Assembly: GCA_019422525.1 (NCBI GenBank)
Contig: JAHZDE010000009.1
Coordinates: 37,150-101,149, forward strand
DNA length: 64,000 bases
Origin: Clostridiales bacterium
GTDB lineage: Bacteria > Bacillota > Clostridia > Oscillospirales > Acutalibacteraceae
Direction: 5' to 3'
Made by a program: the position numbers and the translations under genes. Positions within the stretch are counted from its first letter, which is position 1. Each line of letters starts with the position of its first letter. Below are positions 13,660 to 63,640 of the stretch, in pieces. The notes beneath the pieces are model-generated. The model had not been told where the DNA came from. It did no database searches and worked only from the letters and a program-made list of their open reading frames with translations.

Positions 13660-13822
13660 TGACAAAAGCCGGTCCCCATTCCGGGAACCGGCTTCATGCT
13701 CAAAAATATTGCTATTCTTAAAGAGACAGAATCGACAGCTTCCCTACGATGGTACTAACCAACAGGTTCAATGGGTTAGGCTACTCGCCCTCTCAGCCGC
13801 TTTTAGACGGCACCCCAGCTTT
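13660..13822 (-). promoter_or_regulatory. TPP (THI-box) riboswitch with terminator-type expression platform
   Basis: The minus strand reads CTGGGGTGCC...GGCTGAGAGGG...ACCCATTGAACCTGTTGGTTAGTACCATCGTAGGGAAG, which carries the GGGGUGC, CUGAGA, ACCC-GAACCUG and CGUAGGGAA consensus blocks. A hairpin AAGCCGGTTCCC/GGGGACCGGCTT plus TTTGT (13665-13694) follows. Confidence 0.9.
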
Positions 13823-13838
13823 CTTATATTTCTATGTC

Positions 13839-13867
13839 AGTATAGTCTCTTTTCAGCGTCTTGTCAA
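13839..13867 (-). promoter_or_regulatory. Sigma-A-type promoter of the thi operon (TTGACA-17-TATACT)
   Basis: Consensus -35 at 13862-13867 and -10 at 13839-13844 with a 17-nt spacer. The -35 box overlaps the stop codon of the upstream surface-protein gene. Confidence 0.55.
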
Positions 13868-15480
13868 GAGCGGGCTTTTTTACGCAAAACCACGGCACAA
13901 ACGCTACCAGAAATCATCAACACAACTGCCGCAGCAACAGGAAGCACATTGTCTCCGGTTTGTGGAGTTTCGGGCTTCTCTGTGGGGGTGGGCTGTTCGG
14001 TAGAGTCTGGTTTATCGGTAGGAGTAGGTGTGGGCGTGGGTGTAGGAGTTGGTGTCGGGGTAGGAGTCGGTGTGGGGGTCGGTTCTACCGGTGTCTTCAC
14101 ATCACGACGGTACTGAATTACAATCTGATTAGATTGAGAATCCAATACCAGCTGGATGTTGCCGTTATCGCTGTAATACTGGTATGTTTCCCCATTATAT
14201 ACCGGCTGCTGCTCTATGTCCGAAGCCAGAATGGTTTCGCCTACAATACCGGATACAGGTTCTTCCGTGACGGTTCCGTCCAGTACATATTCGCCGCCGT
14301 CTGTACTGGTATAGTACTGATGGACAACCTGATAGGTGGTATCCATTTGACGGAAAGAAATAGAATTCAGATACTGGAAGTCATACAGCTGATAAGCATT
14401 TCCGGTTCCGGGGCCATCCAACGACAGTGTCATCGTAAAGGCCATGGTTTCGCCTTTTTCCAACAAATCGGCATTTTCCAAATTATCGAAATAATCGTCG
14501 GTTTGCTGATACAGAGCCTCATCCGTCATATAGTCACCAATACCCCGGGTGCGGGTAAAGGCTGTATTCCGGTTGGAGTTCATATCCGCGCATTCATCAC
14601 CGTAAGCAATGGCAAGCAGCTCTTGATAGAAGATATCATAGCTAAGTTCCGCCAGTTCTTCTTCAGGAAACTTCAGCTGAACATCCAGCGTGCCATCACT
14701 ATTTTGCATAGCGTAGATATATTCATCCCACTGGGGATATTCGGCCAGATATTTTTCCAGTTGTTCCACCGTCATGGTGAACTGGGAGTTCTGTCCGAAG
14801 TTAGCGGTTGCGTTGATGAACTTGTTCCAAGTGGTGGAATCCGCTTTCATTTCATCCCAGCTTGCAAAAGAGGTTCCATACAGGTTGTTGTAGTAGTCCA
14901 GCATATAGTCGCTCAATGCTGTTTCTTCGGTATAACCTTTTTCTGCCAGCGTGTCATAAAGTCCAAACATCATGTCAGCGGTTACATTTTTGGAGCCTAC
15001 TCCAAACAACCCCTGGCAAATAGACTTGTCCGCTACAGGAATTGCACCAACATAGGTCAGCGGAATCTGCTTTCCATCAAATCCAGTAAAAGAAGTCAGC
15101 GGGATATCCGGATTCAGGGAACTCAAATCCTGCGGAGCAATGGAAAAGCTTCCTTCCTGATAGGCGTAAGCATGGTTCGATTCATTGGTAATATAGACGT
15201 GGAAGTCATAGCTATCTCCCGGCAAAACATACCCTGATTCGTTAATCATTTCAGTAGCTGCCTGGCTGAGAACAGCTTCTACCTCTGCACCGGCTGCATC
15301 GTTAATAGTCAAGTACAAGTTGTAGTAGCTGTCTGTTCCTTGGTCTACATAACCGGATTTTTCTTCATCTACGGTAACAGGACCCTGCTCGATTTCTACC
15401 GCTGATGCACTGACAGCGCACATTCCACACAACAGTGCTGCGCTGAGAAACACTGCCGTGGCTCTTGCTGCAAATTTCAT
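13864..15480 (-). CDS. Cell-wall-anchored surface protein (signal peptide, unknown ectodomain, MucBP-like module, PT linker, sortase signal)
   Basis: N-terminal signal peptide MKFAARATAVFLSAALLCGMCAVSASA. The C-terminus has (PT)11, then TPQTGD, a hydrophobic helix and RKKARS, i.e. an LPXTG-like sorting signal. Confidence 0.8.
   Translation of the reverse strand: MKFAARATAVFLSAALLCGMCAVSASAVEIEQGPVTVDEEKSGYVDQGTDSYYNLYLTINDAAGAEVEAVLSQAATEMINESGYVLPGDSYDFHVYITNESNHAYAYQEGSFSIAPQDLSSLNPDIPLTSFTGFDGKQIPLTYVGAIPVADKSICQGLFGVGSKNVTADMMFGLYDTLAEKGYTEETALSDYMLDYYNNLYGTSFASWDEMKADSTTWNKFINATANFGQNSQFTMTVEQLEKYLAEYPQWDEYIYAMQNSDGTLDVQLKFPEEELAELSYDIFYQELLAIAYGDECADMNSNRNTAFTRTRGIGDYMTDEALYQQTDDYFDNLENADLLEKGETMAFTMTLSLDGPGTGNAYQLYDFQYLNSISFRQMDTTYQVVHQYYTSTDGGEYVLDGTVTEEPVSGIVGETILASDIEQQPVYNGETYQYYSDNGNIQLVLDSQSNQIVIQYRRDVKTPVEPTPTPTPTPTPTPTPTPTPTPTDKPDSTEQPTPTEKPETPQTGDNVLPVAAAVVLMISGSVCAVVLRKKARS
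14017..14082 (-). repeat. Coding (Pro-Thr)x11 low-complexity repeat
   Basis: Twenty-two consecutive alternating ACN/CCN codons, counted codon by codon. Confidence 0.9.
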
Positions 15481-47729: not shown

Positions 47730-47756
47730 GATATTTGTATATTGGAGGGGATCCCA

Positions 47757-49193
47757 TTGTATTTTTCTGGAAACCAGCTTCTTTTATATGCCGTTACCGA
47801 CCGGGGATGGCTAAAGCCCGGCGAAACCCTGGCACAGCAGGTGGAAAGCGCCCTGAAAGGCGGCGTGACCATGGTGCAGCTGCGGGAGAAAGAACTGCCC
47901 CGGGAGCAGTTTTTGCAGCAGGCACGGGAGATTCTTCCCCTGTGCCGCCGATTCGGCGTGCCGCTGATTATTAACGACGACGTGCAGCTGGCGCTGGAAG
48001 TCGGGGCCGACGGCGTACATATTGGCCAGGAAGATATGGCCTATGAAAAAGCTCGCCAGCTGCTGGGGCCGAATAAAATCATCGGCGTCAGCGCCCACAA
48101 TCCGCAAGAAGCTTTGCAAGCACAAAAAGCCGGGGCCGACTATCTGGGCTGCGGGGCGGTATTTGGCTCTTCCACCAAAGAGGGGGTACAAACACTAACT
48201 CCCGCAGGTCTGAAAGCGATCTGTGAAGCCGTTGAAATTCCCGTGGTGGCCATTGGCGGGATTAGCGAGAAAAATCTGGAACAGCTCAAAGGCTGCGGCG
48301 CCTATGGCGCGGCGGTGGTTTCGGCTATTTTTGCAAAGGAAAATAAAGAAGAGGCGGCCCGACACCTTTCTACTATGGCCGAATCCGTTTTTGGGTTCCA
48401 CAGCCATGGTATGAAAACGGCTTTGACTATCGCTGGGTCTGATTCCAGCGGCGGCGCCGGAATCCAGGCAGACATGAAAACCATGGCGGCTCACGGTGTG
48501 TATGCCATGAGCGCCATTACAGCCCTGACCGCCCAGAATACCACCGGCGTATATGGGGTGATGGAGTCCACGCCCGAATTTTTGAAAAACCAGCTGGACT
48601 GTGTGTTTACCGATATTTTCCCCGACGCCGTAAAAATCGGCATGGTGAGCAGCGCTCCCCTGATTCACACCATTGCCGAAGCGCTGAAAGAGTATCGCCC
48701 TCATAACATTGTGCTGGACCCGGTAATGGTTTCCACCAGCGGGAGCCGCTTGTTGGCGGAAAACGCCTCCCAGGCCCTCCTTATGGAGCTTGCCCCGCTG
48801 GCGGACATCATCACGCCCAACATTCCCGAGGGTGAAGTGCTCAGCGGAATGAAAATCCGCAGCAAACAGGACATGGAGCAGGCTGCCCGTATTATCAGCG
48901 AAAAATTCAGCGGAGCCATCCTCCTCAAAGGCGGCCATCTGGCCGATACCTCCGACGATTTGCTGTATGTGGATGGACAGTCTCACTGGTTTATCGGGCG
49001 GCATATCCCCAACCCCAACACTCACGGTACAGGATGCACTCTGTCAAGTGCCATTGCCAGTTGCCTTGCATTGGGCTTCTCTTTGCCAGAAAGCGTACAG
49101 AGAGCTAAAAATTATGTGGCCGGCGCTCTCTTTGATGGACTGGATTTGGGCCATGGCAGTGGGCCTCTGAATCATGGATATCGGAGCCATTGA
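47757..49193 (+). CDS. thiED: Bifunctional thiamine-phosphate synthase / hydroxymethylpyrimidine(-phosphate) kinase (ThiE-ThiD fusion)
   Basis: The N-terminal half (LLLYAVTD...VQLREK...INDD...VHIGQED...GAVFGSSTK) is ThiE-like. The C-terminal half (ALTIAGSDSSGGAGIQADMKT...) is ThiD-like. The probable start is the TTG at 47757, 6 nt after GGAGGGG; the ORF-track start is at 47742. Confidence 0.88.
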   Translation: MYFSGNQLLLYAVTDRGWLKPGETLAQQVESALKGGVTMVQLREKELPREQFLQQAREILPLCRRFGVPLIINDDVQLALEVGADGVHIGQEDMAYEKARQLLGPNKIIGVSAHNPQEALQAQKAGADYLGCGAVFGSSTKEGVQTLTPAGLKAICEAVEIPVVAIGGISEKNLEQLKGCGAYGAAVVSAIFAKENKEEAARHLSTMAESVFGFHSHGMKTALTIAGSDSSGGAGIQADMKTMAAHGVYAMSAITALTAQNTTGVYGVMESTPEFLKNQLDCVFTDIFPDAVKIGMVSSAPLIHTIAEALKEYRPHNIVLDPVMVSTSGSRLLAENASQALLMELAPLADIITPNIPEGEVLSGMKIRSKQDMEQAARIISEKFSGAILLKGGHLADTSDDLLYVDGQSHWFIGRHIPNPNTHGTGCTLSSAIASCLALGFSLPESVQRAKNYVAGALFDGLDLGHGSGPLNHGYRSH

Positions 49194-54469: not shown

Positions 54470-55114
54470 TCATTTTCTTTTAATCGCTTCGGTTTCAAAA
54501 TGCTCGGGATGCATCAGCACCCAGTTAAAGGCGGCTACCGTATCGGGATGAATGGGCACTTCCTGCTCCGCCAAATCCTTGATGGAAAACGAAAGCCCTT
54601 CTATCATGGCAAGGCGCAAATCCCGCCGGGCTTTCTCCCGCATCCTCTCCACGCCCGGATAGTCCCTGTCGGCAGAAGTAAAGTCTGCAATGAAAATAAC
54701 CCTCTCCAAGGGGCTCATGCCGGCCCGGCCCACGGTGTGGTAATAGACGGCGTTGAGCATGTCCCGGTCGTGGATTTGCAGCTTCTCCTGCATATAGGCC
54801 ATGCCGCTGAAAGCGTGATAGAGCTTTTTGGCGCCCTGCTCCACTTCGGACATATGGATGCCCGCTTTTTCAATCAGCGTCAACTGTTCGGCGGGGGTGG
54901 AATCCTTCATACAATCGTGAAGCACCCCGGCCTCGGCGGCCTTTTTCGGGTCTGCGCCATATTTTTCCGCCAAAATCACCGCCTCATAGGCCACATTGAT
55001 ACTGTGGCGATAGCGATAGTCGCTGAGCAGCGGCCGTATGTTTTCGGCATAGGCTTTTGCGGTGGGGAAGCGTGCAAACAGGGCTTCTTCCCTCTCCCGG
55101 TCTTTTTTACCCAT
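54470..55114 (-). CDS. yqeK: HD-domain bis(5'-nucleosyl)-tetraphosphatase YqeK
   Basis: YRHSINVAYEAV...AGVLHDCMK...ADFTSADRDYPG. The start is the ATG at 55114, with GGGAGAA upstream. Confidence 0.85.
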   Translation of the reverse strand: MGKKDREREEALFARFPTAKAYAENIRPLLSDYRYRHSINVAYEAVILAEKYGADPKKAAEAGVLHDCMKDSTPAEQLTLIEKAGIHMSEVEQGAKKLYHAFSGMAYMQEKLQIHDRDMLNAVYYHTVGRAGMSPLERVIFIADFTSADRDYPGVERMREKARRDLRLAMIEGLSFSIKDLAEQEVPIHPDTVAAFNWVLMHPEHFETEAIKRK

Positions 55115-55134
55115 ATGATTTTCTCCCTTCCGGC

Positions 55135-55410
55135 AAATAAAAGTAAACCCCGGATACAGCCTGTGCCGTATCCGGGGCGAAACAATTCCTGTCCGCGGTA
55201 CCACCCTGATTCAGCCGCAGTATGCCTTGCGGCCCTCGTGGGACTTTACAAAATCCCGGGCGGGTAACGGGGCCAACCGCCTGCCCCTTATCCGGGCAGA
55301 GACTCCGGGGTGAGTATCCACAGCAGGCGTCTGCCGGCTTCCACCAGCCGCCGGCTCTCTGCAAGGCGTATCTGCTGTCTTATCCCCTTCACAGTCTTTA
55401 AAACCATATT
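55135..55410 (-). promoter_or_regulatory. T-box leader (probable Leu specifier CUC) with terminator
   Basis: The minus strand carries the AGAGAG box, a candidate specifier ACTCA (CUC at 55312-55314), and the T-box sequence AATCAGGGTGGTACCGCGG (55193-55212). The terminator CCCCGGATAC...GTATCCGGGG plus TTTACTTTTATTT lies at 55135-55177. Confidence 0.85.
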
Positions 55411-55417
55411 AGTATTT

Positions 55418-55447
55418 ATTATAAACTACCCCATTCCCCCCTGTCAA
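55418..55447 (-). promoter_or_regulatory. Promoter of the T-box operon (TTGACA-18-TATAAT)
   Basis: Consensus hexamers on the minus strand immediately upstream of the leader. Confidence 0.6.
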
Positions 55448-55493: not shown

Positions 55494-57929
55494 TTACCGT
55501 TTTGTAAGCGCTGCACGGGCAATGTCGCGTCTTCGGGCAAAGATGGGAACAGACGGATATTGCTCGGAGAGTTTTGTCCAAATCTCCAGCGCTTTTTGTA
55601 AATAGGCAATTGATTCATCAATCCGGGTGTGGGTATCATCGCTGTTTTGAAAGCTGTTTGAAAGGGAAGGATACAGTTTGGCTAATTGTTGTTCCAAGAC
55701 TTTCTGCTTTTGCTGCAAGTAAATGACCGAATCATCCAGCGTTCCCAGCTTATAATAGGAAAGTGCCAAGTCATCCCGCGCTTCGGGTGTGGGTGCTTCT
55801 TCTGCAAGCTGTTTGCTGATTTCCAAATCCAGCTCATAATACTTTTTGGCTGCCGGGATATCCTCTCCTGCCTTACAGATGTTTCCCATTTTCTCATAGC
55901 TGATAGACAACCCTCGATGGTTTTGTATGGTTGGCGATTCCTCTGATAGTTGTTTACTGATTTCCAATGAAACCTCATAATACTTTTTGGCTGCCGGGAT
56001 ATCCCCTTTTGCCTTCAAGATGTCTCCCATTCTCTCATAGCTGATGGACAAATCCCGGCGCATCTGAATGGTCGGGGATTCCTCTGATAGTTGTTTGCTG
56101 ATTTCCAATGAAACCTCATAATACTTTCGCGCGGCCGGGATATTTCCTTCTGCCTTCAAGATATCACCCATTTTCTCATAGCTGATGGACAACCCCCGGC
56201 GGTTTTGTATGGTTGGCGATTCCTCTGCAAGCTGTTTGCTGATTTCCAAGAAAAGTTCATAAAACTTCTGGGCGGCCGAGATATCCCCTTCTGCCTCACA
56301 GATGCCTCCCATTCTCTCATAGCTGATGGATAGGCTCCGGCGCATCTGGATTGTCGGCGATTCCTCTGCAAGCTGTTTGTTGATTTTCAAAGCAAGCTCA
56401 TAATACTTTCGGGCGGCCGGGATATCCCCTTCTGCCTTTAAGATATCTCCCATTCTCTCATAGCTGACAGACAAATCTCGGCGACTCTGAATTGTCAGCG
56501 ATTTCTCCGCAAGCTGTTGGAATATATCTATTTCCAGCTCATAATATTTCCGGACGGCTGGGATATCCCCTTCTGCCTTTAAGATGTCTCCGAGCTTATT
56601 ATAGCTGACAGCTACATATCGATGTGCAGAAGAAAACTGATACTTTTCCCACGCTGTTTTGCAAAGGGGCAGCAGCTTGGTTTCCCAAACCCACCGCCAG
56701 TTAGAAATCTCTTCCAGCTCTTTATAAAAATCGCCCAAATCCCACCAAGCATTGGTGAGTTCAAGGAAGGTATCCTCTGTTTGAGTTTCTTCCCATGCCT
56801 TTTCCCTAATCTCCACCAGCTTTTTTTGCCAGTCGATAGCCTTGTGAGAATCCCTCTTCACGCCTTCGCCGGAATGGTACATGGAAACAAGCTTTTCCAT
56901 GGCCGGCTCATAGCCCTGCTGGGCTGCGCCCCGGATGAGTGTTTCTGCCCGGTAATGGTCTACTTCCACGTCAATACCCGCCAAATAAGCAAGGCCGATA
57001 AAAAAGTTGTGCTGGGCATCGTCATCATTTTCCCGGATAGCCACCTCCCGCAGGGCGGCGCTCAAACTCTCCGTCAAGGCTGGAGTATCTTCCCCATTGG
57101 TGCAGGAGGGCATGGACTCATAATAGCTTTCCAGCTCCGGACGACCGGTGGGCGTCATTTCCACTGGCAGGATGGGCTTCCCGGCCGCTTTTGCCATGGG
57201 ATACTCAGTGGTCATCACATAGTTGGGGTTTTCCAGCAGACTGGGCGTGACAACCAAGGTGAAGAGCTTACTCTTTTGAAGCGCGTCTATAATGGCCTGA
57301 TTAAAGTTTTCGCCCGGGACTAAAAACTCATCGTACCAGATGGCAATGTCCCGGCAGAATTCGTTTTGATGGATAAGACGCATGAGCTTTTGGGCTTCCC
57401 GGCGGTCCTTTTTTCGATAGCTGAGAAAAATATAAGCGTCAAAGGCTGCCCGCACCTTTGCTGCCAATTCATCGCCCACCAGCACAGAATCCAAAAACTT
57501 TTGCAGCTTTTCTTCAAAGGGAATAGCTGTGCTGTCGTGGGCGTTTGCGTCCAAAAACTGCAAGTCACCGAATTTTTCCTGAAACTTTTCTTCCAGCCCC
57601 GATTCCTGCATCAAAGGCAGCACCGGGATGTGGTGCTCGATGGCAAAGGGAAACTCCTTGTCCATGGCCCGGTTGGGCTGAGTCAGCAGCCGCTCGGTTA
57701 CCGGCATAACAAAAAGCTGCATTTGGGAAAGGTCGGCAGAAAGCTCCTCCCAATTATAGGGCGCTTCCGGCTCGGCATCGTACCAAATAGCACAGTTTTG
57801 CAGCGCTAAAATCTGCTGGCTGATGGGCTTTAGAAAGAACTCCTGCTCTTTGGGATGGCAGCAAAAATAAACCCGGGGCTTTCCCTGGGGGCTGGCGCTT
57901 CCACGAGTGAGATATTGAAGTTTTGACAT
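55494..57929 (-). CDS. Paralogue A: tandem TIR-like domains + SEL1-like segment + 6 x 47-aa TPR-like repeats (811 aa)
   Basis: Domain 1 has PRVYFCCHP...AIWYD...LFVMPVTERLL...DKEFPFA...IPVLPL. Domain 2 has YIFLSYRKKDRREAQ...IAIWYDEFLVPGENF...LFTLVVTPSLL...TTEYPMA...KPILPV, a classic bacterial TIR beta-alpha pattern. The SEL1-like segment reads IGLAYLAGIDVEVD...AMEKLVSMYHSGEGVKRD. The repeats have the form LSISYERMGDILKAEGDIPAARKYYEL.L.ISKQLAEESPTIQ. Confidence 0.7.
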   Translation of the reverse strand: MSKLQYLTRGSASPQGKPRVYFCCHPKEQEFFLKPISQQILALQNCAIWYDAEPEAPYNWEELSADLSQMQLFVMPVTERLLTQPNRAMDKEFPFAIEHHIPVLPLMQESGLEEKFQEKFGDLQFLDANAHDSTAIPFEEKLQKFLDSVLVGDELAAKVRAAFDAYIFLSYRKKDRREAQKLMRLIHQNEFCRDIAIWYDEFLVPGENFNQAIIDALQKSKLFTLVVTPSLLENPNYVMTTEYPMAKAAGKPILPVEMTPTGRPELESYYESMPSCTNGEDTPALTESLSAALREVAIRENDDDAQHNFFIGLAYLAGIDVEVDHYRAETLIRGAAQQGYEPAMEKLVSMYHSGEGVKRDSHKAIDWQKKLVEIREKAWEETQTEDTFLELTNAWWDLGDFYKELEEISNWRWVWETKLLPLCKTAWEKYQFSSAHRYVAVSYNKLGDILKAEGDIPAVRKYYELEIDIFQQLAEKSLTIQSRRDLSVSYERMGDILKAEGDIPAARKYYELALKINKQLAEESPTIQMRRSLSISYERMGGICEAEGDISAAQKFYELFLEISKQLAEESPTIQNRRGLSISYEKMGDILKAEGNIPAARKYYEVSLEISKQLSEESPTIQMRRDLSISYERMGDILKAKGDIPAAKKYYEVSLEISKQLSEESPTIQNHRGLSISYEKMGNICKAGEDIPAAKKYYELDLEISKQLAEEAPTPEARDDLALSYYKLGTLDDSVIYLQQKQKVLEQQLAKLYPSLSNSFQNSDDTHTRIDESIAYLQKALEIWTKLSEQYPSVPIFARRRDIARAALTKR
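55779..56624 (-). repeat. Six tandem 141-bp coding repeats (47-aa TPR-like units) in paralogue A
   Basis: The CTCATAAT landmark recurs at 55833, 55974 and 56115, exactly 141 bp apart. The units are nearly identical to one another. Confidence 0.9.
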
Positions 57930-57977
57930 AAAGATACCCCCTTCTACTGTTTGTTTGATTATTCTACCTCATGTACT

Positions 57978-58006
57978 ATCATACAAGGATTTCTTATCGA
58001 GTACAA
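57978..58006 (-). promoter_or_regulatory. Promoter of paralogue A (TTGTAC-17-TATGAT)
   Basis: The hexamers and 17-nt spacer are conserved in position upstream of all three paralogues. Confidence 0.5.
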
Positions 58007-58039
58007 CTATATAATAAAGTTTCTTTTGTTTTTTCGCCA

Positions 58040-58090
58040 AAAAACAGCAAAAAGCCGGAGTGCCATGGAAACGGACGGCATTCCGGCTTG
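58040..58090 (-). terminator. Rho-independent terminator after paralogue B
   Basis: On the minus strand, AAGCCGGAATGCC...GGCACTCCGGCTT forms a hairpin followed by TTTGCTGTTTTTT. Confidence 0.7.
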
Positions 58091-58095
58091 GTGAT

Positions 58096-60702
58096 TTAGT
58101 TTTCTCCCCGGGCAAGCAGCGAACGGGCAAAATCACGGTTTTGGGCATAGTAGGCAACCATTGGGTATTGCTCGGAAAGCCTTGTCCAAATGTCCAGCGC
58201 TTTTTGTAAGGAACTTACCGAATTTCCCAGTATTCCCAACTTATAGTAAGAAACCGCCAAGTCATCCCATGCTTCGGGTGAGGGCACTTTCTCCGCAAGC
58301 TGTTTGCTGATTTCCAGATCCAGCTCATAGTACTTCCGGGCAGTCGGGAGATCTCCTTCTGCTGTTGAGGTATCTCCCAACTTGTTATAACTAATGGATA
58401 AATCCCGGCAGTTTTCAATGGTCGGCGATTCTTCTGCAAGCTGTTTGCGGAGTTCCAAAGCAAGCTCATAATACTTTCGGGCGGTCGGGAGATCTCCTTC
58501 TGCTTTGCTGATGTCTCCTATACTGTTATAGCCGATAGACAGGCTTTGACGGTTTTCAATAGTCGATGATTCCTCTGCAAGTTGTTTGCTGATTTCCAAA
58601 GCAAACTCATAATACTTCCTGGCGGACGGGATGTTTCCTTCTGCTTTCAAGATACTTCCCATTATCCCATAGCTGATGGATAAAGTCCGGCGGTTTTCGA
58701 GAGTCGGTGATTCCTTCGCAAGCTGTTTGCTAATTTTCAAGAAGAGTTCATAATACTTTTTTGCTTCCGGGATATCCCCTTCTGCCTCACAGATATCTCC
58801 CATTCTCTCATAGCTGACAGACAAACCCCGGCGGTTTTGGATGGTCGGCGATTCTTCCGCAAGCTGTTGGAATATATCTGTTTCCAGCTCATAATACTTT
58901 CTGGCTGCCGGAATATTTTCTTGGGCCCTCAAGATATCACCCAGTTTTTCATAACCGATGGACAAGCTCCGGAGGTTCTCCATGGTCGGTGATTCCTCTG
59001 CAAGTTGTTTCTTGATTTCCAAGGCAAGCTCACAATACCTCCGGGTGGCCTCGATATTCCCTTGGGCCTTCAAGATGTCTCCCAGCTTGTTATAGCTGAC
59101 AGACAAATCCCGGCGGCTTTCGATGGTCGACGATTCCTCTGCAAGTTGTTTACTGATTTCCAAGGCAAGCTCATAATACTTATAGGCTTCCGGGATATCC
59201 CCTTGGACCTCACAAATATCTCCCAGTCTTTCATAGCTAATGGACAAGCTTCGGCGGTTCTCCATAGTCGGCGATTCCTTTGCAAGCTGTTTGAATATAT
59301 CTGTTTCCAGCTCATAATACTTCCTGGCGGACGGGAGATTTCCTTGGACCTTCAAGATGTCTCCCAGCTTGTCATAACTGACAGCTACACGTCGATGTGC
59401 AGAAGAAAAATGGTACTCTTCCCACACGGTTTTGCAAAGGGGCAGCATTTTGTTTTGCCAGACCCACCGCCAGTTAGGGATATCTTCCAACTCTTCATAA
59501 AAATTGCCCAAATTCCACAAGGCGTCTGTGAGTTCAAGAAAAGCATCCTCTGTTTGGGATTTTTTCCATGATTTTTCCCGGCTCTCGGTTAACTTTTCCT
59601 GCCACTCAATGGCTTTGTGATAAGCCCGTTTGACACCTTCACCAGATCGGTACATGGAAACAAGCTTTTCCATGGCCGGCTCATAGCCTTGCTCTGCTGC
59701 ACCCCGGATGAGTGCTTCCGCCCGGTGGTTATCGACTTCTACATCAATGCCTGCCAAATAGGCAAGGCCGATAAAATAGTTGTGCTGCGGGTCGTTATCA
59801 TTTTCCCGGATGGCCACCTCCCGCAGAGCGGCGGTCAAACTCTCCGTCAAGGCTGGAGTATCTTCCCCATTGGTGCAGGGCGGCACAGATTCATAACAGC
59901 TTTCCAGCTCCGGACGACCGGTGGGCGTCATTTCCACCGGCAGGATGGGCTTCCCTGCCGCTTTTGCCATGGGATACTCAGTGGTCATCACATAGTTGGG
60001 GTTTTCCAGCAGGCTGGGCGTGACAACCAAGGTGAAAAGCTTACTCTTTTGAAGCGCGTCTATAATGGCCTGATTAAAGTTTTCGCCTGGGACTAAAAAC
60101 TCGTCATACCAAATGGCAATGTCCCGGCAGAATTCGTTTTGATGGATAAGACGCATGAGCTTTTGAGCTTCCCGGCGGTCCTTCTTCCGATAACTGAGAA
60201 AAATGTAAGCATCAAAGGCTGCCCGCACTTGGGCAGCCAACTCGTCACCTACCAGCACAGAATCCAAAAACTTTTGCAGCTTTTTTTCAAAGGGAATGGC
60301 TGTACTGTCGTGAGCATTCGCGTCCAGAAACTGCAAGTCGCCGAACCGTTTTTGAAACTTTTCTTCCAAACCCGATTCCTGCATCAAAGGCAACACCGGG
60401 ATGTGGTGCTCCATGGCAAAGGGAAACTCCTTGTCCATGGCTCGGCTCGGCTGGGTTAATAGTCGCTCCGTCACCGGCATAACAAACAGCTGCATTTGGG
60501 AAAGGTCAGAAGAAAGCTCCTCCCAATTACGGGGAGCTTCCGGCTCTGGGTCGTACCAGATAGCACAGTTTTGCAGCTCTAAAATCTGCTGGCTGATGGG
60601 CTTTAAAAAGAATCCCTGCTCCTTGGGATGGCCGCAAAAATAAACCCGGGGCTTTCCCTGCGGGCTGGAATTGCCGCGGGTGAGATATTGAAACTTCGAC
60701 AC
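58096..60702 (-). CDS. Paralogue B: tandem TIR-like domains + SEL1-like segment + 8 x 47-aa TPR-like repeats (868 aa), GTG start
   Basis: Colinear with A over the first 435 codons without indels. The segment VRAAFDAYIFLSY...GRPELES (about 110 aa) is identical to A. The start codon is GTG, where A and C have ATG. Confidence 0.7.
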   Translation of the reverse strand: MSKFQYLTRGNSSPQGKPRVYFCGHPKEQGFFLKPISQQILELQNCAIWYDPEPEAPRNWEELSSDLSQMQLFVMPVTERLLTQPSRAMDKEFPFAMEHHIPVLPLMQESGLEEKFQKRFGDLQFLDANAHDSTAIPFEKKLQKFLDSVLVGDELAAQVRAAFDAYIFLSYRKKDRREAQKLMRLIHQNEFCRDIAIWYDEFLVPGENFNQAIIDALQKSKLFTLVVTPSLLENPNYVMTTEYPMAKAAGKPILPVEMTPTGRPELESCYESVPPCTNGEDTPALTESLTAALREVAIRENDNDPQHNYFIGLAYLAGIDVEVDNHRAEALIRGAAEQGYEPAMEKLVSMYRSGEGVKRAYHKAIEWQEKLTESREKSWKKSQTEDAFLELTDALWNLGNFYEELEDIPNWRWVWQNKMLPLCKTVWEEYHFSSAHRRVAVSYDKLGDILKVQGNLPSARKYYELETDIFKQLAKESPTMENRRSLSISYERLGDICEVQGDIPEAYKYYELALEISKQLAEESSTIESRRDLSVSYNKLGDILKAQGNIEATRRYCELALEIKKQLAEESPTMENLRSLSIGYEKLGDILRAQENIPAARKYYELETDIFQQLAEESPTIQNRRGLSVSYERMGDICEAEGDIPEAKKYYELFLKISKQLAKESPTLENRRTLSISYGIMGSILKAEGNIPSARKYYEFALEISKQLAEESSTIENRQSLSIGYNSIGDISKAEGDLPTARKYYELALELRKQLAEESPTIENCRDLSISYNKLGDTSTAEGDLPTARKYYELDLEISKQLAEKVPSPEAWDDLAVSYYKLGILGNSVSSLQKALDIWTRLSEQYPMVAYYAQNRDFARSLLARGEN
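58270..59397 (-). repeat. Eight tandem 141-bp coding repeats in paralogue B
   Basis: Counted from the translated repeats starting at H436. The units are moderately diverged. Confidence 0.85.
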
Positions 60703-60749
60703 GAAGATACCCCTTTCTACTGTTTTGTTTACTGTTCACCCTTATATTT

Positions 60750-60778
60750 ATGATACATGAGTTTCTTATTTTGTACAC
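60750..60778 (-). promoter_or_regulatory. Promoter of paralogue B (GTGTAC-17-TATCAT)
   Basis: Positional homologue of the A and C promoters. Its -35 is one base further from consensus. Confidence 0.4.
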
Positions 60779-60856
60779 TAATAATGGGGTTTCTTTCGAT
60801 TTTTCGCAAAAAACAATTTGTCATCGAAATGACACTTTAGCTTTTTTGCAAAGCAG

Positions 60857-63475
60857 TTATTTGCCTCTTTTTTTAAGCGCTGCGCAGGCAACATCGCGGT
60901 TTTTGAGATAGCGGGGAATGGATGGATATTCTTCAGCCAGCTTTTTCCAAATATAGAAGGCCGTTTTTAGATAGGAACGGGAACGAAAAAAAGGCCTTTT
61001 TAGAGTTCCAATCTTATAATAACAAAGGGCAAGATCTTCCCTCGACTCGGGTGTGTGTGATTCCTTAGCAAGCTGCTTCCGTATATCAAGACTTTGTCGG
61101 AAAAATTCATTCGCAGATGATAGATTCCCATTTGCCTGGCTAACATCCCCCAGCCTTTCACAACAAATAGACAGATTCCGGCGGTTTTCAAGATTTGGAA
61201 ACTTCTCGGTAAGAAGCTGGAGAATCTTGTGACAAAGTTCAAAAAAATGTCGGGCACATAACAAATTGCCTTCCATCCAGCAGATATCCCCCATTCTGCC
61301 ATAACATTCAGATAAATTCTCCCGGTTCTCAATGGTCGGGGATTTCTTTGCAATCTGCTTGGAGACTTGCAGGCTTTTCTCATAAAATCGCCGGGCAGAG
61401 GATAAATCCCCTTGCAGCTGACAAACCTCTCCCAGTTTATAATAACCGATAGACAAGTTTCGGCGATTTTCAATGGTGGGAGATTCTTCGGCAAGCTGTT
61501 TGAATAGGTTCAGGCTAAGCTGATAAAATTGACGGGCAGATGTAAGGTTCCCTTCTGTCTCACAGACTTCTCCAAGCCTGTCATAACAAATAGACAGATT
61601 CCGACGATTTGTTATCGTGCCGAACTCCTCATACAGCTGTTCGACAATCTCCAAATCCAGCTGGTAAAATTGACGGGCAGCCTTGAGATCTCCTTCCGCT
61701 TGGCTGATATCCCCAAGCCTTTCATATCCGATAGACAAGCTGTGACGATTTTGAATGGTTGGCGATTCTTCCACAATCCCTTTGATGATATCCAAATCCA
61801 GCTGATAATACTGGTGGGCAGATATAAGGTCTCCTTCTGCTTGGCTGATATCCCCCATTCTCTCATAACTAATAGATAAACTCCGGCGATTCTTCATCAC
61901 CGGCGACTCCTCCACCATCTGCTTGCAAATTCCCATGCTTAACTGATGAAACTTTTTGGCAGCCTGAATATTTCCCTGTGCTTTGCTGATATCCCCCAGT
62001 TTGCTATAATTGATGGATAATCCCTGGCGGTTTTCCATAGTCGGTGACGTTTCCACCAGCTGCTTAAAAATCTCCATACTCAGCTGATAAAATTTTCTGG
62101 CAGCCTGTAAATTTTCTTCTGCTTCCAATATGTTTCCCAGTTTATGATAACTAATGGATATACCACGGTTCGCATCAGGAAAATGGTACTCTTCCCACAC
62201 AGTCTTACAAAGCGGCAGCATTTTGCTTTCCCAAACCCACCGCCAGTTAGGGATATCTTCCAGCTCTTTATAAAAATTGCCCAAATCCCACAAGGCATCC
62301 GTGAGATCAAGAAAAGTATCCTCTGTTCGGGATTTCCCCCATGCCTTTTCACGGCTCTCAATTAGCTTTTTTTGCCAGTCAATTGCCTTTTGATAATTCT
62401 GCGCAACGCCTTCGCCGGAGCGGTACATCAAAACGAGCTTTTCCATGGCCGGATCATAGCCCTGTTCGGCTGCACCCCGGATCAGTGCTTCCGCCCGCTG
62501 ATTATCGACTTCCACGTCAATACCCGCCAAATAGGCAAGACCGATAAAATAGTTGTGCTGCGGGTCGTTATCATTTTCCCGAATGGCTAACTGCCGCAAG
62601 GCATCCAGCAAACTTTGGGACAGAGCCGGAGCATCCTCCCCATTGGTGCAGGGCGGTACGGATTCATAACAGTTTTCCAGTGCCGGGCGGCTGGTAGGCA
62701 TCATTTCCACCGGCAGGATGGGCTTCCCGGATTTCTGCGCCATGGGATACTCGGTAGTCATCACATAGTTGGGATTTTCCAGCAAGCTGGGCGTGACAAC
62801 CAAGGTGAAGAGCTTACTCTTTTGAAGTGCGTCTGCAATGGCCTGGTTGAAGTTTTCGCCCGGGACTAAAAACTCATCGTACCAGATGGCAATGTCCCGG
62901 CAGAATTCGTTTTTATGGATAAGGCGCATGAGTTTTTGGGCTTCCCGGCGGTCCTTCTTTCGATAACTGAGGAAAATATAAGCGTCAAAGGCCGCTCGTA
63001 CCTTTTGGGCCAGCTCGTCGCCAATCAAAATGGAGTTTAGGAACTTTTGCAGCTTTTCCTCAAAGGGGATAGCTGTGCTGTCGTGAGCGTTCGCATCCAG
63101 AAACTGTAAGTTCCCAAACCGTTTTTGGAATTTCTCTTCCAGCCCCGATTCCTGCATCAGGGGAAGCACTGGGATATGGTGTTCCACAGCGAAAGGGAAC
63201 TCTTTGTCCATGGCTCGGTTGGGCTGGGTTAGCAACCGCTCGGTTACCGGCATAACAAAAAGCTGCATTTGGGAAAGGTCAGCAGAAAGCTCCTCCCAGT
63301 TATCGGGGACTTCCGGTTCTGGATCGTACCAGATAGCGCAGTTTTGCAGCTTTAAAATTTGCTTGCTGATGGGTTGTAAAAAGAATTCCTGCTCCTTGGG
63401 ATGGCCGCAAAAATAAACCCGGGGCTTTCCCTGCGGGCTGGAACTGCCGCGAGTGAGATATTGAAGCTTTGACAT
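60857..63475 (-). CDS. Paralogue C: tandem TIR-like domains + SEL1-like segment + 8 x 47-aa TPR-like repeats (872 aa)
   Basis: Same architecture, and the N-terminal 435 codons are colinear with A and B. Its repeat units are the most diverged of the three (for example LSICYDRLGEVCETEGNLTSARQFYQLSLNLFKQL). Confidence 0.7.
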   Translation of the reverse strand: MSKLQYLTRGSSSPQGKPRVYFCGHPKEQEFFLQPISKQILKLQNCAIWYDPEPEVPDNWEELSADLSQMQLFVMPVTERLLTQPNRAMDKEFPFAVEHHIPVLPLMQESGLEEKFQKRFGNLQFLDANAHDSTAIPFEEKLQKFLNSILIGDELAQKVRAAFDAYIFLSYRKKDRREAQKLMRLIHKNEFCRDIAIWYDEFLVPGENFNQAIADALQKSKLFTLVVTPSLLENPNYVMTTEYPMAQKSGKPILPVEMMPTSRPALENCYESVPPCTNGEDAPALSQSLLDALRQLAIRENDNDPQHNYFIGLAYLAGIDVEVDNQRAEALIRGAAEQGYDPAMEKLVLMYRSGEGVAQNYQKAIDWQKKLIESREKAWGKSRTEDTFLDLTDALWDLGNFYKELEDIPNWRWVWESKMLPLCKTVWEEYHFPDANRGISISYHKLGNILEAEENLQAARKFYQLSMEIFKQLVETSPTMENRQGLSINYSKLGDISKAQGNIQAAKKFHQLSMGICKQMVEESPVMKNRRSLSISYERMGDISQAEGDLISAHQYYQLDLDIIKGIVEESPTIQNRHSLSIGYERLGDISQAEGDLKAARQFYQLDLEIVEQLYEEFGTITNRRNLSICYDRLGEVCETEGNLTSARQFYQLSLNLFKQLAEESPTIENRRNLSIGYYKLGEVCQLQGDLSSARRFYEKSLQVSKQIAKKSPTIENRENLSECYGRMGDICWMEGNLLCARHFFELCHKILQLLTEKFPNLENRRNLSICCERLGDVSQANGNLSSANEFFRQSLDIRKQLAKESHTPESREDLALCYYKIGTLKRPFFRSRSYLKTAFYIWKKLAEEYPSIPRYLKNRDVACAALKKRGK
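61043..62170 (-). repeat. Eight tandem 141-bp coding repeats in paralogue C
   Basis: Counted from the translated repeats starting at N436. Confidence 0.85.
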
Positions 63476-63523: not shown

Positions 63524-63552
63524 ATGATACAGGAGTTTCTCATTTGGTACAA
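63524..63552 (-). promoter_or_regulatory. Promoter of paralogue C (TTGTAC-17-TATCAT)
   Basis: Hexamers with a 17-nt spacer, about 50 nt upstream of the ATG. Confidence 0.5.
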
Positions 63553-63592
63553 GTAATACAATAGATTTTCTTCCGATTTTTCGCAAAACAAC

Positions 63593-63640
63593 AAAAAAAA
63601 CCGAACCTCTTTCCTGTGAAAAAAGGTTCGGTTTTTATTT
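63593..63640. terminator. Bidirectional terminator after the Rrf2 gene
   Basis: A8-CCGAACC...GGTTCGG-T5ATTTT. Confidence 0.7.

Follow-up and report, generated by a model that had tools for sequence, protein, structure and literature searches.

Tandem TIR–Sel1–TPR proteins of Clostridia: three paralogues from an Acutalibacteraceae genome as candidate stand-alone sensor-effectors

We analysed a 64,000-nt stretch of a Clostridiales bacterium (Acutalibacteraceae; assembly GCA_019422525.1, contig JAHZDE010000009.1, positions 37,150 to 101,149), hereafter the window, in which three adjacent genes, A, B and C, encode paralogous multidomain proteins (Table 1). The open reading frame (ORF) listing and the paralogue alignment returned an intact minus-strand trio of 811, 868 and 872 amino acids (aa), as an initial annotation of this DNA had described it. 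Each protein begins with two TIR domains (TIR1 and TIR2), continues through a Sel1-like helical block and ends in a long tetratricopeptide repeat (TPR) solenoid. Neither a P-loop, nor a STAND module, nor any other nucleoside triphosphatase (NTPase) was found in A, B or C by Pfam, NCBIfam or PADLOC, and the Walker A/B motifs reported missing at the outset are indeed absent. The three proteins also lack transmembrane or signal-like segments, with a maximum Kyte-Doolittle value of 0.94 over 19 residues, again as first proposed.

The second TIR domain was recognised at the sequence level, with Pfam TIR_2 matching aa 167–266 of all three proteins at 49.9–50.7 bits (gathering cut-off 28). Residues 1–160 had no Pfam match in any of them, and the family profile of the TIR1 region gave no significant match to PDB sequences. 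TIR1 aligned with TIR2 by BLASTP (E 1e-8, 34% identity over 73 aa) and by profile-profile comparison in hhalign (probability 97.4%, E 1.1e-11, 85 columns). The AlphaFold2 model of B residues 1–434 (predicted local distance difference test score, pLDDT, of 85.8) contains two successive β-α units of the same topology; residues 1–150 modelled alone reached a pLDDT of 93.4 and a predicted template modelling score of 0.88. In Foldseek, the best PDB matches of this TIR1-only model were all TIR domains, from RPS4, SARM1, BtpA/TcpB, SPARTA, AbTir, PdTIR, MyD88 and TIR-STING, at E 1e-4 to 7e-3 and template modelling (TM) scores of 0.5–0.64. The 1–434 model additionally matched SARM1, TLR1/2, MyD88 and BtTir. 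The TIR fold of TIR1 was therefore revealed only by structure and profile-profile methods, since the sequence-profile search against the PDB came up empty. On this evidence, TIR1 is an internal duplicate of TIR2 that has diverged, and its predicted fold is that of a TIR domain.

The interval of ~150 aa between TIR2 and the TPR region is all-helical and Sel1-like in the AlphaFold2 model. Its Pfam Sel1 signal was weak, confined to aa 309–340, and passed the threshold in B alone (32.0 vs 30.7 bits), with A and C below it. In the Foldseek search with the 1–434 model, Sel1-repeat crystal structures ranked on top (E 1.5e-4) and covered aa 282–429. From approximately aa 430 onwards, TPR_12, TPR_10, TPR_2 and TPR_8 all matched strongly in A, B and C, the TPR_12 matches lying between E 1e-25 and 2e-34. 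The solenoid repeats itself every 47 aa exactly, six times in A and eight times in both B and C, and a divergent cap follows each array; at the DNA level, a 141-nt tandem repeat spans 55797–56591 in gene A. Within the unit, the scaffold is conserved at L11, S12, Y15, G19 and A31, and variability is concentrated at positions 10, 16, 22, 23, 25, 29, 30, 32, 38, 40 and 42. The TIR–TIR–Sel1–TPR description given by the initial annotation, which had proposed a check of residues 1–300, is correct, because the folds of both TIR domains and the Sel1 segment are supported by profile and structure matches.

Table 1. Features of the three-gene locus and its immediate surroundings (window coordinates).
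Feature	Position	Strand	Basis
Gene A, 811 aa, ATG start: TIR1-TIR2-Sel1-TPR, 6 repeats + longer cap	55494..57929	-	ORF, Pfam, paralogue alignment
A TIR1 (aa 1-150), diverged TIR fold, no Pfam match	57480..57929	-	91% identity to B TIR1
A TIR2 (aa 160-270), TIR_2; Box1 FDAYIFLSY, Box2 DEFLVPG, E242	57120..57452	-	Pfam E 3.2e-13; family conservation
A Sel1-like helical adaptor segment (aa 282-428)	56646..57086	-	weak Pfam Sel1; Foldseek Sel1 matches of B model
A TPR solenoid: six 47-aa repeats (aa 429-710, nt 55800-56645) + C-terminal cap	55494..56645	-	47-aa spacing; TPR_12 E 1.2e-25
Gene A promoter-like element TTGTAC-N17-TATGAT, TG extension	57978..58006	-	conserved in three upstream regions; consensus match
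Gene B, 868 aa, GTG start: TIR1-TIR2-Sel1-TPR, 8 repeats + cap	58096..60702	-	ORF, Pfam, paralogue alignment
B TIR1 (aa 1-150)	60253..60702	-	hhalign vs TIR2 97.4%; AlphaFold2 pLDDT 93.4; Foldseek top matches TIR
B TIR2 (aa 160-270), TIR_2, E242	59893..60225	-	Pfam E 5.6e-13; PDB profile matches AbTir, BtTir, TIR-1
B Sel1-like helical segment (aa 282-428)	59419..59859	-	Pfam Sel1 32.0 bits vs 30.7; Foldseek Sel1 proteins E ~1e-4
B TPR solenoid: eight 47-aa repeats (nt 58291-59418) + cap	58096..59418	-	repeat spacing; DNA tandem repeat; TPR_12 E 1.9e-34
Gene B promoter-like element GTGTAC-N17-TATCAT, TG extension	60750..60778	-	conserved in three upstream regions; consensus match
Terminator-like hairpin + T-run after gene B	58049..58089	-	sequence inspection
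Gene C, 872 aa, ATG start: TIR1-TIR2-Sel1-TPR, 8 repeats + cap	60857..63475	-	ORF, Pfam, paralogue alignment
C TIR1 (aa 1-150)	63026..63475	-	89-90% identity to A and B TIR1
C TIR2 (aa 160-270), TIR_2	62666..62998	-	Pfam E 3.4e-13
C Sel1-like helical segment	62192..62632	-	Pfam Sel1 25.8 bits, below threshold; homology to B
C TPR solenoid: eight 47-aa repeats (nt 61064-62191) + cap	60857..62191	-	repeat spacing; TPR_12 E 2e-32
Gene C promoter-like element TTGTAC-N17-TATCAT, TG extension	63524..63552	-	conserved in three upstream regions; consensus match
Terminator-like hairpin + T-run after gene C	60808..60833	-	sequence inspection
Strong terminator-like hairpin, 19 pairs, insulating gene C from upstream Rrf2 gene	63593..63636	-	sequence inspection
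T-box leader (Rfam RF00230, 106 bits) between gene A and HD/YqeK-like gene	55170-55447	-	Rfam

The two TIR domains differ in the residues expected of an active enzyme. Box1 and Box2 of TIR2 read as canonical, and E242 is invariant in the 27-sequence family alignment; it is Glu in 232/232 members of a wider sample, counted over those with an assignable alignment register. In TIR1, the corresponding residue, E92, is Glu in 148/209 members (71%), Asp in 35 (17%) and non-acidic in 26 (12%), and the TIR1 boxes are degenerate. When the family profile was aligned with Caenorhabditis elegans TIR-1, E242 fell on the Glu of WVHKE, i.e. the catalytic Glu of the WxxxE motif of TIR-1/SARM1, and V238 fell on the Trp. 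The 13 residues separating E242 from the βD “ILP” equal the spacing in TIR-1 and in the active gut TIR protein COPEUT_02740 (sequence from the supplement of PMC9092222). E242 is the probable, predicted equivalent of the catalytic residue. With both boxes canonical and E242 invariant, TIR2 is a candidate NAD+-cleaving or signal-making domain, and the asymmetry between TIR2 and TIR1 suggests, as far as sequence can tell, a pair of one catalytic and one accessory TIR.

Divergence among the paralogues increases from head to tail. The tandem-TIR heads of A, B and C share 86–97% identity, the Sel1 segments 73–82% and the solenoids 47–69%, that of gene C being the most divergent. The copies are old, because synonymous divergence (dS) among them is substantial (0.2–1.2). 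The ratio of nonsynonymous to synonymous divergence (dN/dS) was 0.05–0.13 for both TIRs, 0.15–0.24 for Sel1 and 0.23 for the A/B solenoid. By these low ratios, the heads are under strong purifying selection and all three genes are kept by selection. We also considered a recent expansion of the repeats and rejected it: the DNA repeats are merely 72–81% alike, so the arrays must be old, without very recent expansion.

The trio belongs to a large family. An exhaustive HMMER search with an aa 1–300 query against 1.84 billion representatives returned 1,646 clusters or more (50% identity, E ≤ 1e-30), a count driven by the diversity of the tails. The tandem-TIR module was always N-terminal in these matches, in proteins of 520–1,903 aa, and the number of in-register repeats across the family ranged from 1 to 14. 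A word-indexed search with B residues 1–434 retrieved at least 1,449 proteins, typically 55–60% identical over the whole head, which their sources name merely “TIR domain-containing” or “tetratricopeptide repeat” proteins. A scan of 185,579 genomes, one per species, gave 557 matches, and several scattered copies per genome were common; the presence and copy number of family genes do vary among species genomes, a point that had been singled out for checking. The hosts are nearly all metagenome-assembled genomes (MAGs) of gut and rumen Clostridia (Lachnospiraceae, Oscillospiraceae, Acutalibacteraceae, Ruminococcus), apart from a small number of bins assigned to Treponema, Spirochaetaceae and Muribaculaceae. 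Members in the last three groups (L062, L047 and L053, respectively) were 53–54% identical, and L047 holds a three-gene tandem array; such non-Clostridia members could reflect horizontal transfer or binning contamination.

The best species-genome match to the head of the trio was 64% identical. Closer relatives came from other sources: a metagenome contig (L082) is 96.9% identical to and collinear with window positions 55978–60886, so the B–A tandem is present in another sample, and the homologue next in identity (P0002, 75%) has other genes around it. Tandem copies occurred in 7 of 79 homologous loci. Five comparable arrays of other genomes showed the same gradient as ours, with 61–93% identity in the head vs 23–61% in the tail. 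The head is also joined to other tails, namely a BspA-type leucine-rich repeat (LRR) domain, LRR_5, in P0168, MORN plus TPR in P0131, and sequences ending in FHA in P0070 and P0084; hence the sensor tail has been swapped within the family. P0131 carries, moreover, a 185-aa extension ahead of the head. The best-scoring representative, P0121 (1903 aa), is twice the usual length with two stretches matching the head, and may have arisen from two tandem family genes by fusion or read-through. One cultured strain, Coprococcus eutactus ATCC 27759, encodes a true family member, COPEUT_02728, which is 53% identical to B over TIR1–TIR2–Sel1 (E 5e-144). Twelve locus tags away lies COPEUT_02740, an unrelated single-TIR protein and an active NAD+ hydrolase (NADase) producing ADP-ribose (PMC9092222, Table S2); the surroundings of the two genes may form a small TIR-rich region.

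No conserved partner gene emerged when all ORFs of 80 homologous loci were clustered, the best cluster being present in 11/79. Nor did the flanks in the window contain ThsA, SLOG, SAVED, a cyclase, an Argonaute or another partner gene, in line with the initial annotation. Defence-like neighbours in the 79 loci were CARF-PD-(D/E)xK (Card1-like) nucleases in 3 loci and the MADS genes mad2, mad3 and mad8 in 2–3 loci. Additional TIR_2 proteins flank a family gene in 5 loci, and two neighbours are inosine-uridine nucleoside hydrolases. The CARF, MADS and TIR_2 neighbours are too few for enrichment.

Each of the three genes is preceded by a TGTAC-N17-(TG)TATSAT element and a GGGG-type ribosome-binding site, which bears out the proposal that they are independently promoted; the promoter-like and terminator-like elements in Table 1 are consensus or pattern matches, not measured transcripts. 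Upstream of the −35 region of all three genes we also observed a conserved A-rich box, GCGAAAAATCGAAAGAAA (58020–58038, 60790–60807 and 63567–63584, minus strand), which could be an UP element or an operator and was not shared by family genes of other genomes. Its interpretation as a Spo0A-box was rejected, as the motif occurred in 6% of 83 family upstream regions vs 13% of the background. The k-mers enriched in these 83 regions were solely those of the sigma-A promoter and the ribosome-binding site. An Rfam scan for a leader or riboswitch on A, B and C found none. The nearby T-box belongs to the downstream leuS operon: together with a perfect TTGACA-18-TATAAT promoter (55447–55418) it precedes the HD/YqeK-like gene, rsfS and leuS, a unit separate from gene A. 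The ORF at 54470–55204 overruns into the T-box leader, and its true start is probably the ATG at 55117.

The trio is flanked by an Rrf2 gene, the HD/YqeK-like gene, RsfS, LeuS and further housekeeping genes; upstream of gene C the window holds ~0.5 kb, in which a fragment of the Rrf2 regulator alone was seen. No integrase, transposase or mobile element was found in the window. Elsewhere, it contains a thiamine pyrophosphate riboswitch (RF00059, 68.8 bits) at 13723–13827 on the minus strand and ThiD/ThiE-type genes at 47742–49193. A 538-aa ORF at 13864–15480 (minus strand) had no Pfam match at E ≤ 1e-8; an opposite-strand ORF of 458 aa (13861–15237) overlaps it, and one of the pair is probably spurious.

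As for published systems, the closest is TIR-II, a single-protein TIR plus TPR system of E. coli with validated anti-phage activity that requires the TIR active-site residues (PMC11350192, Nat Commun 2024). Its authors call it the most abundant and widespread TIR system, report it also in Caudoviricetes, and find an ATPase in ~30% of members, with ~70% lacking one; escape phages were not obtained, and the trigger was not identified (PMC11350192). Like TIR-II, the present family combines TIR and TPR in one chain without an obligatory partner. It differs in having two tandem TIRs, the Sel1 block and the regular 47-aa TPR unit. TIR-II is found in Caudoviricetes, whereas our family resides in Clostridia chromosomes without a phage match; the two are likened by architecture and not by sequence. 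PADLOC and NCBIfam assigned A, B and C to no known defence system, the PADLOC 2023 models predating TIR-II. What they matched was generic TPR, the TPR part of the candidate system PDC-S39, and, weakly, ThcB4 and, on TIR2, ThsB (E ~5e-4) and SAVED-TIR. The statement in the initial annotation that the locus fits no known defence architecture is tempered by TIR-II, a single-chain TIR plus TPR system that had already been validated. Its suggestion of an undescribed family stands in part. Our survey of the literature on TIR-TPR proteins, tandem TIRs and TIRs in Lachnospiraceae found no description of a tandem-TIR/Sel1/TPR family; on the other side, it has at least 1,646 clusters, and the TIR2 of one member was assayed in 2022 (PMC9092222).

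Other systems resemble the trio in parts. SARM1 (ARM-SAM-SAM-TIR, an autoinhibited NADase) also pairs an α-solenoid sensor with TIR and has no NTPase, TIR2 aligns, in the E242 register, to the WxxxE Glu of TIR-1/SARM1 with the same Glu-to-βD spacing, and the SARM1 TIR was among the top Foldseek matches. Unlike SARM1, our proteins lack SAM oligomerisation domains, carry TIR at the N-terminus (reversed order), use TPR/Sel1 in place of ARM repeats and have two TIRs per chain. The STAND/Avs proteins and bacterial TIR-NTPase-TPR proteins akin to nucleotide-binding leucine-rich repeat receptors (NLRs) share the N-terminal effector and C-terminal TPR or LRR sensor, as well as paralogue repertoires with a conserved effector, divergent repeats and sensor types swapped within a family. 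They differ by their NACHT, NB-ARC or P-loop module, in place of which our family has the ~150-aa Sel1-like helical block. Thoeris (ThsB plus ThsA), BcTir/Tpr and ThsI of Thoeris VII/VIII are similar in the TIR_2-type domain, the weak ThsB model matches and the TIR-TPR association. Those are two-gene systems whose TPR protein receives a TIR-made signal, whereas here TIR and TPR are fused with no linked effector or receptor; a ThsB-type TIR linked to ThsA or another effector, which defines Thoeris, was not seen in the window flanks and does not recur in the 79 homologous loci. DSR2, an anti-phage NADase (SIR2 plus α-solenoid), is reported to be one large NTPase-free protein in which a NADase-type head at the N-terminus is joined to C-terminal helical repeats that sense a phage structural protein by binding it. 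Its effector fold is SIR2 and not TIR, and the analogy concerns mechanism only. Taken together, the Clostridia-specific, NTPase-free combination of tandem TIR, Sel1 and 47-aa TPR is a variant of the single-chain TIR-repeat sensor-effectors represented by TIR-II and, by analogy, SARM1 and DSR2.

We propose, tentatively and at somewhat less than an even chance, that A, B and C are cytoplasmic, stand-alone, NTPase-free sensor-effectors of a conflict or immune (defence) type. The constrained head, the fast-diverging and swappable tails, the patchy multi-copy distribution, stand-alone transcription and the lack of a partner argue for the receptor repertoire of a conflict system and not for a housekeeping enzyme. 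The C-terminal solenoid would serve as the variable recognition surface, with a phage or other foreign protein as the ligand by analogy, and the Sel1-like block as a rigid adaptor. The tandem TIR would be the conserved output module, TIR2 being the candidate catalytic domain and TIR1 a degenerate duplicate that probably gives the second TIR surface of the active site, or else restrains TIR2. The resting protein would be inactive (autoinhibited). Once the solenoid bound its ligand, the heads would be rearranged or brought together and TIR2 switched on, and the three paralogues would be three specificities wired to one output. In SARM1, SPARTA, AbTir and plant TIRs, each active site is built from two TIR domains. 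A second TIR carried in the chain itself could therefore take the place of an oligomerisation engine of the NTPase or SAM kind, or it could serve as a lock. We consider a role in defence plausible; the defence outcome, like catalysis, autoinhibition and the kind of trigger, is inferred. Still more specific is the possibility that the family consists of NTPase-free, NLR-like receptors in which TIR1 acts in cis as an activator or lock of TIR2, and whose arrays with swapped TPR, LRR or MORN tails would form a germline anti-phage repertoire of gut Clostridia; this extension we regard as doubtful.

Several observations weigh against the sensor-effector reading. HMMER alignments with AbTir and BtTir pair NY236–237 with the NY of those proteins and place their catalytic Glu opposite V238, so that the catalytic register is ambiguous on sequence grounds, E242 following from the TIR-1/SARM1 alignment and V238 from that with AbTir/BtTir. 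The one biochemical result for the family is negative: the isolated TIR2 of COPEUT_02728 gave the in vitro product “None” (PMC9092222, Table S2, 2022). That negative is weak evidence, since the same screen scored 124 of 152 domains as inactive (28 active) and its authors warn of false negatives for isolated domains (PMC9092222); lack of activity in TIR2 on its own agrees with an enzyme that requires its partner domain or activation and, equally, with a non-enzymatic TIR. Positive selection at the variable repeat positions was considered and rejected, with dN/dS of 0.5–0.6 vs 0.19 for the scaffold but not above 1, in a comparison that is partly circular and has dS near saturation; the values indicate relaxed constraint. 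The head, at 55–60% identity across Clostridial families, would also suit a conserved cellular partner. The window is core chromosome (UvrB, SMC, TopA, DprA, TrmFO/GidA-like, aconitase, thiamine genes) without a defence-island signal, and the 137 immediate neighbours in the 79 loci are mostly housekeeping genes, with a handful of defence genes. When 50,697 phage and 72,556 plasmid records were searched by tblastn, none matched the tandem-TIR module; the plasmid matches to the head query were annotated as SEL1-like, none being to the TIR module. A self-contained sensor-effector, as first put forward, is still the best-supported account; a defence role finds no support in the genomic context. 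Our confidence is held at the level given above because there is neither a defence-island context nor a phenotype.

Among the alternatives, we consider it unlikely that the family is a non-catalytic scaffold or adaptor whose TIRs are interaction modules, as in TLR/MyD88, with Sel1 and TPR assembling or regulating a cellular complex. Such a role would agree with the lack of NADase product from the COPEUT_02728 TIR2, the hydrophobic V238 at the catalytic position of the AbTir/BtTir alignment, the housekeeping neighbours and the head conserved across families, and Sel1 and TPR are classic scaffolding repeats. However, E242 is invariant within an otherwise variable helix and aligned to the SARM1-type catalytic Glu, Box1 and Box2 of TIR2 are canonical, the 79 loci revealed no conserved partner, and a patchy, multi-copy distribution with hyperdiverse tails would be unusual for a housekeeping scaffold. 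It is quite unlikely that the tandem TIR is a Thoeris-like signal generator that, on sensing its ligand, makes a messenger of the cyclic ADP-ribose type for an effector whose gene lies at another site in the genome. In bacteria, the genes of a signalling system nearly always share an operon, and ThsA, SLOG, SAVED or another receptor is neither linked in the window nor recurrent in the 79 loci; what speaks for this possibility are the weak ThsB and SAVED-TIR matches of TIR2, the NAD-derived signals used by the TIR/TPR pairings of BcTir/Tpr and Thoeris VII/VIII, and the CARF/Card1-type nucleases adjoining a family gene in 3/79 loci.

The position of the locus in the core chromosome, beside the yqeK-rsfS-leuS operon, could also be taken to mean a chromosomal, housekeeping-type regulator of NAD+/nucleotide homeostasis or development, its repeats sensing an endogenous ligand; purifying selection on all three copies and the constitutive appearance of the promoters would fit. 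We find this improbable, as the family, with 557 matches in the species genomes, is by no means universal, not even among Clostridia, its copy number and context vary (P0002 being an example of the latter), the Spo0A-box idea was rejected, and the diversity of the tails is hard to square with a single endogenous ligand. Very improbable, in our view, is a host-directed TIR mimic (Tcp-like), released by gut commensals and interfering with host TLR/MyD88 signalling or host NAD+. The near confinement of the family to gut and rumen bacteria and the Foldseek similarity to the TIR domains of BtpA/TcpB, MyD88 and TLRs point in that direction, but a signal peptide, transmembrane segment and secretion-system context are all absent from the proteins and the window. 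These are, furthermore, cytoplasmic proteins of 800–900 aa with intracellular-type repeats, and a repertoire of paralogues with divergent tails would be left unexplained.

The family is less unprecedented than the initial annotation held, but it is large and experimentally accessible. A family gene is present in a cultured type strain, Coprococcus eutactus ATCC 27759, which makes experiments feasible. With one head and many tails, the family offers a natural set for studying how new specificities arise in repeat sensors. The “inactive” score of the isolated COPEUT_02728 TIR2 may underestimate the conditional NADase capacity of the microbiome. If the sensor-effector reading is true, these proteins would show how one TIR domain can be controlled by another on the same polypeptide, with neither an NTPase nor a SAM scaffold. 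As immune sensor-effectors, they would be among the largest uncharacterised TIR receptor families in the gut microbiome of humans and animals, with members in Lachnospiraceae, Oscillospiraceae and Ruminococcus.

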